Shown here piece after piece: positions 393 to 4,090 of a stretch of DNA of 7,647 bases. Numbering within the stretch: position 1 is the first letter of the stretch; every line of letters starts with the position of its first letter. Under the pieces are notes generated by a model. It saw only the letters and a program-made list of their open reading frames with translations. It searched no databases and had not been told where the DNA came from. The stretch lies in IMG/VR virus record IMGVR_UViG_2671180755_000005. One strand, written 5' to 3'. The position numbers and the translations under genes were made by a program. The DNA comes from a virus (Duplodnaviria; Heunggongvirae; Uroviricota; Caudoviricetes).

Positions 393-1031
393 TTAAATAT
401 CTTGTTGAATTTTAAAGCATACTCCCAATATGCAAGATAGATCATCCAGCATAATTGAAGGGTAGCGAGGATTCGTGGGGACTAAAAGAATATCCGGCCC
501 TTCTATCTCCAGTTTGCGAATGACAGGCGTTGTGGTCCCTTTGGGTAAGGCAAGGACAATATTTCCTGGTTGTACGATTCGATCGGGATCAACAAAAACT
601 GTTGAACCATTTGGGATGGAAACTCCACCACCAGATGTCGACATACTGTCACTCTCTAGAACAACAGCAAAGGTATTGGCCGGGATTTCTCCGACAAGCT
701 GCACACAAGAGGTTATTGAGGAATTTTTCATATAATCACTCCAGCTTGCTGCCTGCTGAAGTGATAGTAGCGGAACCGTTTTTATCGGCGGTAAAGATAG
801 ATCAAGCGAATCACCTGTATTTAACTCTCCTCCATTAAGAAGCCAATTTTCGTTTACTTTCAATATCTTTGCCAGTGAACTTATGTAACGCGAGGACGGC
901 GCTCCTCCACCGTTCATCCATTGACTTACGGAGCCTTTTGATGCGCCAGTGGCATTGACAAGGTCTTTGCCTTTCAAGTTTAGCGCATGCATACGTTGGG
1001 TTATGCGTTCAGATATTGTTTGCTTGTTCAT
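393..1031 (-). CDS. cI: cI-like prophage repressor (N-terminal HTH, C-terminal S24 LexA-type autopeptidase domain)
   Basis: Complete 212-aa ORF. N-terminal HTH-like segment (LKGKDLVNATGASKGSVSQW), C-terminal S24 features including a Ser motif (ESDSMS) and a downstream Lys (VIRKLE). Divergent from the cro-like gene across an operator-bearing intergenic region. The ATG has no SD and abuts the operator, consistent with a leaderless PRM-type transcript. Confidence 0.9.
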   Translation of the reverse strand: MNKQTISERITQRMHALNLKGKDLVNATGASKGSVSQWMNGGGAPSSRYISSLAKILKVNENWLLNGGELNTGDSLDLSLPPIKTVPLLSLQQAASWSDYMKNSSITSCVQLVGEIPANTFAVVLESDSMSTSGGGVSIPNGSTVFVDPDRIVQPGNIVLALPKGTTTPVIRKLEIEGPDILLVPTNPRYPSIMLDDLSCILGVCFKIQQDI

Positions 1032-1774: not shown

Positions 1775-1842
1775 CCAACAATATTCATGCCGGATTTCTT
1801 CCGGATGTTCGAGGGTAAAGTTCGGTATCAGAAGAGGTGAGT

Positions 1843-2886
1843 ATGGCTAATGCCTGGCTCAGATTGTGGCATGACATGCCAAATGACCCCAAGTGGCGAA
1901 CGATTGCCAGGGTATCAGGACAGCCAATCGCAACAGTGATGGCAGTGTATATCCATCTTCTGGTGAGCGCGTCACGAAATGTCACGACATGTCACGGCGT
2001 GTCACTACGTGGTCACATTGATGTCACGACGGAAGATTTAGCAAGTGCGCTTGATGTGACGGAAGACGTAATTGATTCAATTTTGCATGCAATGCAGGGG
2101 CGGGTTCTGGATGGTGACCTTATTTCCGGATGGGAAAAACGTCAGGTGCTGAAAGAGGACAATGGTAACGTTTCGCAAACGGCAAAATCCCCGGCAGAGC
2201 GCAAGAGAGCGCAGCGGGAGCGGGAAAAGCTGCGGAAACATAATGCTGATTGTCACGATGAGTCACGACGTGTCACGCATCTGTCACGACAAGTCACGAC
2301 AGATAAAGATACAGATAAAGATACAGATACAGAATTAAACCCCACACATAACGCGCGCGAGAGTATTCCGACCAGTGAGTCGAATGGTGCGCCGTTGCAG
2401 ACAGCCGAACCTGAATACCTGGACGGCCTGAGCGAACCGATCGGGAAATTTTCGATGACTACTGTCTGGCAGCCGTCGCCGGATTTTCGACAACGGGCAG
2501 CAGTGTGGGGTATGGCTCTGCCTGAGCCGGAATTTACACCTGCTGAGCTTGCCGCATTCCGGGATTACTGGATGGCGGAGGGGAAGGTTTTCACGCAGGT
2601 TCAGTGGGAGCAGAAATTTGCCCGCCACGTGCAGCACGTCAGGGCACAGGTAAAACCAGTCAGCAAGGGGGGAAGCCATGCAGCATCAGGTGGCACGGCA
2701 TCACGGGCAGTTCAGGAAATCCGGGCTGCACGCGAACAGTGGGAACGTGACAACGGATTTATCAGCAACGGAAACGGCCTGGAAGCTGTGGGTGCTCATG
2801 GGGGAGGTGTATTCGAACCGCTGGACTCAGAAGAACGGGGCCGCACCTTCGAAGCTCTGGATTGCCCAGATTGGTGCGATGACTGA
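1843..2886 (+). CDS. Replication initiator / replisome organiser (lambda O-like role) with internal iterons and a DnaT-like C-terminal domain
   Basis: ATG at 1843 with GAGG 5 nt upstream. The N-terminal domain is encoded across the iteron array. The C-terminal segment IGKFSMTTVWQPSPDFRQRAAVWGMALPEPEFTPAELAAFRDYWMAEGKVFTQVQWEQKFARHV closely resembles the C-terminal domain of E. coli DnaT as I recall it. Confidence 0.85.
   Translation: MANAWLRLWHDMPNDPKWRTIARVSGQPIATVMAVYIHLLVSASRNVTTCHGVSLRGHIDVTTEDLASALDVTEDVIDSILHAMQGRVLDGDLISGWEKRQVLKEDNGNVSQTAKSPAERKRAQREREKLRKHNADCHDESRRVTHLSRQVTTDKDTDKDTDTELNPTHNARESIPTSESNGAPLQTAEPEYLDGLSEPIGKFSMTTVWQPSPDFRQRAAVWGMALPEPEFTPAELAAFRDYWMAEGKVFTQVQWEQKFARHVQHVRAQVKPVSKGGSHAASGGTASRAVQEIRAAREQWERDNGFISNGNGLEAVGAHGGGVFEPLDSEERGRTFEALDCPDWCDD
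1968..2030 (+). repeat. Iteron array 1: six copies of the GTCAC(G) core phased at 10-11 bp
   Basis: GTCACG at 1971, 1981, 1991 and 2023; GTCACT at 2001; GTCACA at 2012. One helical turn apart, inside the O-like gene. Confidence 0.7.
2251..2337 (+). repeat. Iteron array 2 (five GTCACG copies, 2252-2298) followed by an AT-rich tandem repeat (GATAAAGATACA twice plus GATACAG, 2302-2332): candidate replication origin
   Basis: GTCACG at 2252, 2262, 2272, 2283 and 2293 with about 10-bp phasing, then an AT-rich repeat encoding DKDTDKDTDT. This mirrors the lambda ori layout of iterons plus an AT-rich region inside gene O. Confidence 0.7.
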
Positions 2887-3340
2887 ACAGCAAATCCGTC
2901 TGGTGTGCCGTCAGTGCATGGACCGCTGCCGGGCGGGTGAAACGTGGCCCCCGGACCTGGCTGAGTTTGTTGCGCTGATTTCGGAGAGTGGGGCAAATCC
3001 ATTTGGTCTTACGGTGGATGCCGTGATGGAAGAGTACCGGCGCTGGCGCAATGAATCCTGGCGATACGACGGGAGTGATAAATACCCGTGGCCACAGCCT
3101 GTGCTGTACCACATCTGCCTCGAAATGCGTACCAGAGGGATTGAGCGCCAGATGACGCAAGGTGAGTTAAAACGACTTGCGGAACGGCAACTGACGAAAT
3201 GGGCAAAGCATGTTGGTAACGGGATGAGTGTTCCGCCAGTGCGACGACAACTGGAAGGGGCGAAACACCCGCAAGGGCCAACGCCAATTGAACGGCTGAA
3301 ACAGGAATACGAACGCCGGAAGGCAGCTGGTTTTATTTGA
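2678..3340 (+). CDS. Lambda P-like replication protein (helicase loader)
   Basis: 220-aa ORF. Recalled similarity to lambda P: ETWPPDLAEFVALI versus RPFLPSPGQFVAWC, KYPWPQPVLYHICLEMRTRGIERQMTQGELKRLAERQL versus SYPWKSNAHYWLVTNLYQNMRANALTDAELRRKAADEL. ATG at 2678 has the same CAAGGGGGG SD-like motif as the ydaT-like gene. Alternative in-frame starts at 2798 and 2879 have weaker SDs. Confidence 0.75.
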   Translation: MQHQVARHHGQFRKSGLHANSGNVTTDLSATETAWKLWVLMGEVYSNRWTQKNGAAPSKLWIAQIGAMTEQQIRLVCRQCMDRCRAGETWPPDLAEFVALISESGANPFGLTVDAVMEEYRRWRNESWRYDGSDKYPWPQPVLYHICLEMRTRGIERQMTQGELKRLAERQLTKWAKHVGNGMSVPPVRRQLEGAKHPQGPTPIERLKQEYERRKAAGFI

Positions 3341-3373
3341 ATCTGAGAAACGATTTTGTCGGAGGAAATATTA

Positions 3374-4090
3374 ATGGAAACCGTATTTGACGCACTGAAA
3401 GCACTGAAAAAAGCCTCTTCACAGGTAGTGGCATCGCGCCTTGGAATCAGCCGCGAAGATGCTGTCAACGAACTGTGGAAACTGAAGCGCCGTGGTGAAG
3501 CGGATAACAAGGGGTCGATGTGGTGGCTGACTCAGACTGGTGAAAGTGAACCAGTGTCACCGGTACCGAAAGTGACAGCGCAAATGCTGACTGAGGCGAT
3601 TGAACATCATGGCCCACAAACGGCGGATGAGCTGGCACTGATGTTCGGGATTACCTCCCGCCGGGCGAATTCATCACTGGCCATGGCAATCAGCAAAGGG
3701 CGTCTGATTCGCGTGAATCAGGGCGGTAAATTTCGGTACTGCATACCGGGCGCTGATTTACCGGCAGAGCCGAAAGCCGCATCCATAACGGAAACGGATG
3801 GTAAAGCCTTTCCTCAGCCAGCAGGTGTTGCGTTACCAGTCGGGGAAGCGGAAACACAGGAAGAAATAAAAACTGAAAGTGTGGCGGTCACAGTGCAGTC
3901 ACAGCCGTCGTTCACCAGAAAGCATCCGGATGGTCTGATTTTACCATCGCTGCATGTGGCTAACCGCGAGCTGCGCCGGGCAAAAGGTCAGGTTCAGAAG
4001 TGGGAGCGAGTCTGCGCCGCGCTGCGGGAGCTGAACAAGTGCCGGGATATTCTCCGGGATATTACCGCCACCAGAGAACAGCAGCGGTGA
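3374..4090 (+). CDS. Hypothetical protein with two N-terminal winged-helix-like repeats and a basic, coiled-coil-like C-terminus
   Basis: ATG at 3374 with GGAGG 8 nt upstream; the ORF-track start at 3356 is a TTG with no SD. 238 aa. The two repeat segments begin around residues 1 and 70. Occupies the position that ren holds in lambda. Confidence 0.8.

Follow-up and report, generated by a model that had tools for sequence, protein, structure and literature searches.

A 209-nucleotide out-of-frame overlap between the O-like initiator and P-like helicase loader genes of a lambdoid prophage is probably coding in both frames

The O-like replication initiator gene and the P-like helicase loader gene of a lambdoid prophage share 209 nucleotides (nt) read in two different frames, and comparison with related loci indicates that both genes are probably real across this overlap, with P starting at its upstream ATG. 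The DNA analyzed (hereafter the window) is the whole 7,647-nt stretch of the Caudoviricetes record IMGVR_UViG_2671180755_000005 of IMG/VR; its positions 1800-3400 are 100% identical to Escherichia coli O157:H7 strain 493/89, 3 mismatches being counted over 5900 nt, and it represents the replication/immunity region of a lambdoid prophage of this serotype. The overlap is best regarded as an ancient dual-coding junction of initiator and helicase loader, that is, as a variant of the O/P module and not as a new kind of system. No previous description of this overlap was found in literature searches, the closest papers being those on DopC/DopE and on lambda P structures.

The O-like coding sequence (CDS) occupies positions 1843-2886 of the plus strand, according to the list of open reading frames (ORFs) and to RefSeq for the near-identical strain, and encodes 347 amino acids (aa) from the ATG at 1843, with an in-frame GTG at 1837. 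Its frame is open from 1819 and closes with the TGA at 2884-2886, in agreement with what had been noticed when the sequence alone was read, i.e. that it continues well past the DnaT-like homology (the Pfam DnaT domain ends at 2649). The frame of P, on the same strand, is open from 2654 and ends with the stop codon at 3338-3340; the extent that we propose for the CDS, 2678-3340, starts with the ATG at 2678-2680 and would give 220 aa, with homologues of 216-223 aa in many genera. In the shared stretch (2678-2886), about the last 70 codons of O lie over about the first 70 codons of P, and P codons begin one base after O codons (O1=P3, O2=P1, O3=P2). The Shine-Dalgarno (SD) site of P, AAGGGGGGAAG (2665-2675, plus strand), sits within the Gly-Gly linker codons of O, and the motif GG..[HNYD][AVE] of the O frame is the SD plus the ATG of P read in the other frame. 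Two parts can be distinguished in the overlap, both on the plus strand. In part 1 (2678-2779), the conserved tail helix of O (TASRAVQEIRAAREQWERDNG) lies over the poorly conserved, predicted-disordered residues 1-34 of P. In part 2 (2780-2886), the first, conserved helices of the region of P that resembles domain II (AWKLWVLMGEVYSNRWTQKNG...LWIAQIG) lie over the Gly/acidic C-terminal end of O, whose residues there are largely dictated by conserved P codons, MGEIYSNRW in P forcing, for example, [HD]GG[ND]L.E[PS]L in O. The translated window contains the P-frame peptides HHGQFR, SGLHANSGNVTTDLSATETAWK (within residues 1-40) and LWVLMGEVYSNR, and the O-tail peptides AVQEIR, EQWER, DNGFISNGNGLEAVGAHGGGVFEPLDSEER and TFEALDCPDWCDD, the latter two beyond about residue 285 of O.

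Conservation was followed in 37 loci taken from contigs of one genome per species, belonging to Escherichia, Citrobacter, Enterobacter, Klebsiella, Salmonella, Pectobacterium, Serratia, Erwinia, Yersinia, Rahnella, Rouxiella and other genera; 36 of the loci are initiator-linked, and 33 non-redundant ones were used for resampling. In the 36 initiator-linked loci, drawn from more than 15 enterobacterial genera, both frames are open without exception and the overlap measures 149-224 nt, so that O-like proteins do not end near the equivalent of position 2670, as could have been the case according to the sequence-only reading, but all extend 149-224 nt beyond the start of P. When P codons were resampled synonymously, the probability that the O frame stayed open was 0.059 in the window (median for the 33 loci, 0.038), and for the P frame, under resampling of O codons, the median was 0.27, while both frames are open in 33/33; the loci are phylogenetically related, and these per-locus probabilities are not independent and cannot be multiplied. 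The context that would create a stop in O (T at P3 before an AA, AG or GA codon) was found in 0/223 cases in the P-conserved half, versus 265/1135 (23%) where P alone is encoded. At sites where a change is silent for P but alters O, the loci differ from one another in about 70% of pairwise comparisons (p about 0.7). Taken on these comparative grounds, an overlap by chance would not explain the open frames, and the possibility that the 3' end of O had been altered in this particular DNA is excluded because the arrangement is conserved. In two intact orphan P-like genes of Erwinia, without an initiator (positions 2426-3052 of locus L032, 208 aa, and 2474-3043 of L041, 189 aa), the O frame is interrupted by 2 and 6 stops, yet the N-terminal motif of P (AWRLWDLM / VWQLWDTM) and an upstream ATG are retained. 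One of them adjoins ttcA and the other a phosphotransferase system (PTS) transporter gene, and they could be prophage remnants or domesticated loaders. As separate observations, in Leclercia adecarboxylata NCTC13032 (L040) the P frame runs into the O-frame tail at about 2688-2760 (…AWHLWQVMGGNILEPVDAEEWGRTFGALDSPDRFDD), which indicates a putative 1-nt frameshift within the overlap, be it a pseudogene or a sequencing error; the O pseudogenes flagged as 'frameshifted' in L005 and L050 by the Prokaryotic Genome Annotation Pipeline (PGAP) break more than 570 nt upstream, not in the overlap or in the G-run.

Codon periodicity, evaluated as mean pairwise variability, moves from the O frame to the P frame along the overlap. 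The most variable position is O3 (0.56-0.61) at 2708-2767 (P codons 11-30), and from about 2798 onward it is P3, as elsewhere in P; in P codons 1-10 the periodicity is not clear. OLGenie-like ratios were compared with a non-coding +1-frame baseline of 0.93 in O-only sequence and with a non-coding baseline of 1.24-1.31 for O in part 2. In part 1 (P codons 2-34) they were 0.62-0.74 for O and 0.67-0.82 for P. In part 2 (P codons 35-68), pNN/pSN for P was 0.32-0.42, equal to the P-only region, while the ratio for O was 0.91-1.03, with confidence intervals overlapping those of its baseline. Judging from these patterns, the coding of O is clear up to about 2780 at the least and that of P from about 2780 at the latest, and each frame appears to be kept open and mildly constrained across the territory of the other. 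Polymorphism was also analyzed within a set of 12 E. coli/E. albertii alleles, 87-99.9% identical: 27/203 columns were polymorphic in the overlap versus 153/661 in the flanks (p=0.002), the O2/P1 position was polymorphic in 1/68 cases versus 28/220 (p=0.005), and polymorphic O3 columns fell from 49% in O-only sequence to 27% in part 1. No doubly nonsynonymous differences were found in the overlap in pairwise comparisons of a 7-allele subset (the window plus L001, L002 and L004-L007). This deficit within E. coli supports dual constraint, as far as can be deduced from allele comparison.

An explanation that shares with ours two real genes and a P start at 2678 is that the tail of O after about 2780 has no function as a protein, O just continuing to the first stop permitted by the P codons, or that it is a long read-through used for the control of expression, in which ribosomes translating O pass across the 5' part of P. 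We consider this unlikely, yet it has arguments in its favor: selection on O in part 2 is indistinguishable from neutral within confidence limits, its residues there are mostly set by the conserved P codons, and the O-frame stop lies at differing distances ahead of the WPPD motif, between 25 and 97 nt. On the other hand, part 2 is free of stops in all loci, as opposed to the 23% of stop-creating T in P-only contexts, and P3 polymorphism in the E. coli alleles is 26% in part 2 versus 44% in P-only sequence, a weak difference (p=0.08). As for expression control, no stable mRNA structure that could hint at coupling was detected around the ribosome binding site of P, the folds of 2630-2730 (z=-0.43) and 2580-2900 (z=+0.53) not going beyond those of shuffled sequences.

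The strength of the possible SD sites of P was evaluated in the 36 loci as the duplex energy with the 3' end of 16S rRNA, the background median being -3.1 kcal/mol. The ATG equivalent to 2678 is kept in all loci and carries an SD of the GGAGG type almost everywhere, with an energy of -11.0 kcal/mol in the window and a median of -10.7 kcal/mol, which corresponds to the top ~1% of background positions; the opening of the P frame at an ATG with a strong SD, as first read from the sequence, is a general trait of these loci. At the position equivalent to 2798 there is an ATG in 34/36 loci (CTG in L024 and L026), with a median SD of -6.3 kcal/mol, and at the equivalent of 2879 the median is -3.7 kcal/mol, near background, and the codon is not ATG in 10/36 loci, where TTG, TTC, CTG, TGC, TGT or CTC are found. 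The start of P is disputed among databases. In 11/11 E. coli loci inspected, PGAP/RefSeq annotate the O-like gene at 1843-2886 and P at 2879-3340, with the ATG at 2879-2881 (plus strand), a 153-aa product and an 8-nt overlap (ATGACTGA) with O; the GenBank phage records use the same start or an even later one. In Salmonella, Klebsiella and Citrobacter the start chosen by RefSeq is the equivalent of the internal ATG at 2798-2800 (plus strand; M41 of the 220-aa protein), with 180-181 aa, and other gene callers and some NCBI records give a P of 216-223 aa. No model of NCBIfam matches P, and therefore NCBIfam offers no explanation for the different RefSeq choices.

The P protein translated from 2678 matches Phage_lambda_P (PF06992) with 58.1 bits, against a cut-off of 26, and the profile phrog_109 ('P-like helicase loader', E=1.9e-62), its residues 18-220 aligning with positions 22-236 of 236. 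The length and motif spacing expected from lambda P for a start at this ATG were borne out by the comparisons: 220 versus 233 aa, W61 aligned with W70 of lambda P in the profile match to the PDB entry, and Foldseek alignments of 196-215 columns, with probability 1.0, to the lambda P chains of the DnaB-lambda P complex 9oa1, which were the top matches. The AlphaFold2 model used in the latter, with a mean predicted local distance difference test (pLDDT) of 66.9 and thus of moderate confidence only, has disordered residues 1-27 (pLDDT below 50) and a helix at 30-53 that spans M41. Lambda P has been described as having a disordered domain I (residues 1-29) and a compact domain II (about 30-119) (PMC12661323). 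According to the model, P from 2678 would be colinear with full-length lambda P, with a disordered N-terminus followed by the helix 30-53. The product of the window would be a loader of the lambda P type (PF06992 / PHROG 109), by sequence and by a colinear architecture in which a disordered N-terminal segment is followed by the compact domain II, by domain III and by a C-terminal segment, with a predicted role in the loading of DnaB.

A start of P only at 2798, with an overlap of 89 nt, a protein of 180 aa and the first 40 codons of the longer frame left untranslated, seems to us improbable. It would fit with the near invariance of this Met in the protein alignment, with the decent SD of a few loci (-9.3 to -9.8) and with the poor conservation of P residues 1-34. 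However, two loci have CTG at this place and its median SD is weaker than that of the upstream ATG, which is always kept; the AWxLW motif, located upstream of M41, is retained even in the orphan P genes that have lost the O frame; M41 falls in the middle of a predicted helix, and all members of the family, including lambda P, have 35-60 residues before that helix. Besides, the frame of P codons 2-34 is always open, with the ratio below baseline given above. M41 is probably a Met within the protein and may serve as a secondary start; as one of the alternatives raised in the sequence-only reading, 2798 is unlikely as the sole start and possible as an additional, internal one.

Much less credible is the model in RefSeq, where a 153-aa P starting at 2879 would be coupled to O through the 8-nt overlap, the upstream P frame being incidental. 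It is the PGAP annotation in every E. coli genome examined, and its ATGA-type junction resembles the 4-nt junction of lambda O/P. Yet neither this coupled junction nor a consistent start of P at this place holds among the relatives, in which the ATG is replaced in the 10 loci mentioned, preceded by an SD at background level, and the position of the O stop varies by 72 nt relative to P. Residues 35-67 of P, upstream of this start, are among the best conserved of the family in the protein alignment, with the periodicity and the pNN/pSN values typical of P, and distant homologues align from residue ~20-36 and have N-terminal extensions of their own of 20-60 residues. According to the structural comparison, a P starting at 2879 would lack domain I, about half of domain II and two predicted helices, a loss equivalent to lambda P residues 1-76. 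The 153-aa RefSeq P is probably truncated and the ATG at 2879 is probably not the start of P. An equally weak alternative, a programmed +1 frameshift near the internal SD and G-run that would yield an O-P fusion protein, was rejected, since no slippery heptamer is conserved across loci; the SD-like G-run (GGGGGG) read in the O frame directly ahead of the open P frame, and the isolated fusions such as P0106, have little weight when the run is present in few alleles (most loci having GGAGGT), the conserved ATG with a proper SD spacing suffices for P synthesis, and the fusions are singletons, compatible with sequencing errors or pseudogenes. These singleton fusion proteins are P0106 (DUF1376 plus P) and P0032 (P plus DUF1627). 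The profile phrog_15931 (482 positions) spans O (1-347) and P (279-482) as if some of its entries were fused; it seems to combine entries for O, for P and/or for O-P fusions, perhaps owing to the overlap.

Two real genes with P starting at 2678, the first of the alternatives initially considered, is the reading supported by the conserved frames, the SD and the periodicity. Several points weigh against it. It rests wholly on comparison, the translation of both frames being predicted, and to the relatedness of the loci and the moderate confidence of the P model must be added that amino acid selection on the last ~35 residues of O appears weak, so that they may matter only as an open frame, that selection on residues 2-34 of P seems modest, and that the nearly invariant M41 could be an alternative start. 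The adaptor role of the O tail discussed below is also a tentative one.

The comparisons indicate that O (1843-2886) and P (2678-3340) are probably both translated over the overlap in their different frames, with P initiating on its own SD and ATG, inside the Gly-Gly linker codons of O and 209 nt before O ends. The constraint is shared out between the frames, a conserved C-terminal helix of O lying in part 1 over a disordered N-terminus of P similar to domain I of lambda P, and the first domain-II helices of P lying in part 2 over a low-complexity, acidic end of O.

The C-terminus of O consists of the DnaT-like domain followed by a tail of ~78 aa, and the motif of this tail, GG..HA...ASRAVQQIRAAREQWER...G.GG.L.EPLD.EE[RW]..., is common to initiators that are otherwise wholly different. 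The unit formed by tail and P is found behind at least four types of initiator, with a DnaT domain, with Phage_rep_O (L022, in which this domain is joined to the same O tail), with HTH_36/DnaD_N (L023) and with DUF1376 (L024, L027 and the E. coli locus L048), and several other initiators that bear the tail have no Pfam match. Between differing initiators, homology resumes exactly at the SD of P. A search with the 78-aa tail alone was uninformative, with 8 close E. coli fragments as the only matches, and in single comparisons the tail resembled neither lambda O nor K-12 YdaU (best E-values, 1.3 and 0.61). The tail might be an adaptor specific for P and inherited together with the loader, which we infer, tentatively, because it is the only part common to unrelated initiators that precede this P family. 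The older genetic literature on lambda places the contact between the two proteins in a C-terminal portion of O and an N-terminal portion of P. If adaptor and loader N-terminus are encoded on the same DNA, swaps of initiator or origin specificity could not part the loader from its adaptor. The overlap could then represent a co-encoded interaction cassette, in which the O tail docks P and the P N-terminus is the receptor. Recombination would then move the two as a single, indivisible piece onto unrelated initiator/origin modules, within a large and ancient clade of P-like loaders, with lambda in an alternative clade; we put this forward as a possibility, short of an even chance.

With respect to annotation, the evidence favors a P of about 220 aa over the 153-aa or 180-181-aa forms, and expression constructs or structures based on the short forms would lack not only the N-terminus but also some of the domain with which lambda P builds its spiral on DnaB. 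The overlap would also be a clean, deeply conserved and long same-strand case in a double-stranded DNA prophage, of the sort often dismissed as start-site errors. If the adaptor role is true, mosaic lambdoid phages may retain compatibility between initiator and loader while they exchange origin specificities, because the adaptor tail would not be separable from the loader by recombination.

The long overlap extends beyond this set of loci. In five distant relatives of P (30-42% identity), sampled one by one, the upstream frame enters P by 149-281 nt, always in phase P+2; two others (L060 and L061) were too short and too GC-rich to be interpreted. Lambda (L045) and L057 and L058, of the lambda clade, have a 4-nt ATGA/GTGA junction with the initiator in phase P+1, which agrees with the initial remark that in lambda the two genes overlap by only a few nt. 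There are, in summary, two types of junction among P-like loaders, one of 4 nt and phase P+1 in the lambda-like 'FPA' clade, and one of 149-281 nt and phase P+2 in the 'W..LW..IY..RW..KNG' clade and its relatives (including L051-L056).

The region can be compared with several known systems. It shares with lambda O/P the order of a cro-like gene, a gene in the position of cII, initiator and loader, with iterons inside the initiator gene, and P shares with lambda P the PF06992 match and colinearity, lambda P chains being its top structural matches. It differs in the extent and phase of the overlap (209 nt with O in P+2, versus 4 nt and P+1), and also in O, whose tail has no detectable counterpart in lambda O and whose C-terminal domain is DnaT-like. 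DopC/DopE consist of a domesticated O-like protein with a DnaT C-terminal motif and a P-like protein (Brezellec et al., 2017; PMC5509034). As in the window, an initiator-like protein with that motif is paired there with a PF06992 loader-like protein; compared through that paper alone, DopC/DopE differ in being chromosomal and domesticated, with iterons not reported and the overlap unmentioned. The ydaU/ydaV pair of the Rac prophage of K-12 has racR/ydaS/ydaT-like genes upstream, as the window does, and YdaU is a DUF1376 initiator whose N-terminus is 56% identical to that of the tail-bearing L027 initiator. However, the YdaV loader is of the DnaC/IstB type, the two genes are 6 nt apart and YdaU has no tail. 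The long same-strand overlaps described in phages and bacteria (OLGenie-type cases) resemble this one in having two conserved open frames with fewer variable sites, and in the location of a weakly constrained, disordered segment opposite the constrained segment of the partner. Among the long overlaps that are annotated in bacterial genomes, most go back to an erroneous start site, and the present case is the reverse, since it is the annotation that removes an overlap that is probably real. Moreover, the partners are consecutive replication proteins, predicted to interact functionally, and not a host gene and a novel overprinted ORF.

As for the initiator gene itself, the O-like protein matches PHROG replication-initiation families, and its DnaT-like single-stranded DNA-binding domain (PF17948, 62.6 bits, E=2.9e-17) is encoded at 2449-2649 on the plus strand, residues 205-271 of the ORF counted from 1837; positions 82-156 of the 179 of the NCBIfam DnaT model also match. 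Phage_rep_O, the N-terminal domain of lambda O, was absent in the Pfam search of the window protein, in which the DnaT domain was the only match, and O is an analogue of lambda O and not a member of its family. A repeat search identified about ten GTCACG-type iterons inside O, with 10-nt spacing, in two clusters (1971-2030 and 2252-2300), the arrays being about 270 nt apart. By analogy with the ori iterons inside lambda O, these arrays constitute a presumptive replication origin, and the protein fits the type of the iteron-binding initiators, with the gene directly 5' of the loader and iterons in its own CDS. A 12-nt tandem repeat (ACAGATAAAGAT) at 2299-2335 codes for DKDTDKDTDTE in O, and nucleotide homology to many prophages with different O N-termini starts at 2303-2336 (query positions 504-537), which suggests that the repeat may be a recombination junction between the origin-specific and loader-specific halves. 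A TDTDTD linker similar to DKDTDKDTDTE is also present in L027 and in YdaU.

The genes of the window are arranged as an S24/HTH repressor gene on the minus strand, a P22-Cro-like gene, a YdaT-like gene, the O-like initiator gene with the DnaT-like domain, the P-like loader gene and a DUF1627 gene. Related DNA is present in 2535/5426 complete E. coli genomes. The repressor ORF (393-1031, minus strand, 212 aa) has an N-terminal HTH_3 and a C-terminal Peptidase_S24 domain; in the near-identical strain RefSeq gives 393-731 only (113 aa, 'LexA family protein'), which may be another start-site truncation, with loss of the DNA-binding domain. According to RefSeq, the Cro-like (equivalent to 1123-1365) and YdaT-like (1349-1774) genes overlap by 17 nt at 1349-1365, and the longest ORF in the YdaT frame starts at 1277, with which the overlap with the Cro-like gene would be 89 nt. 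Finally, the region in PP818812.1 (Actinobacillus phage vB_Apl-pPE4) shares 87% DNA identity with the E. coli prophage, which is unexpected for a Pasteurellaceae host, and a check of its assigned host or of sample purity may be worthwhile.

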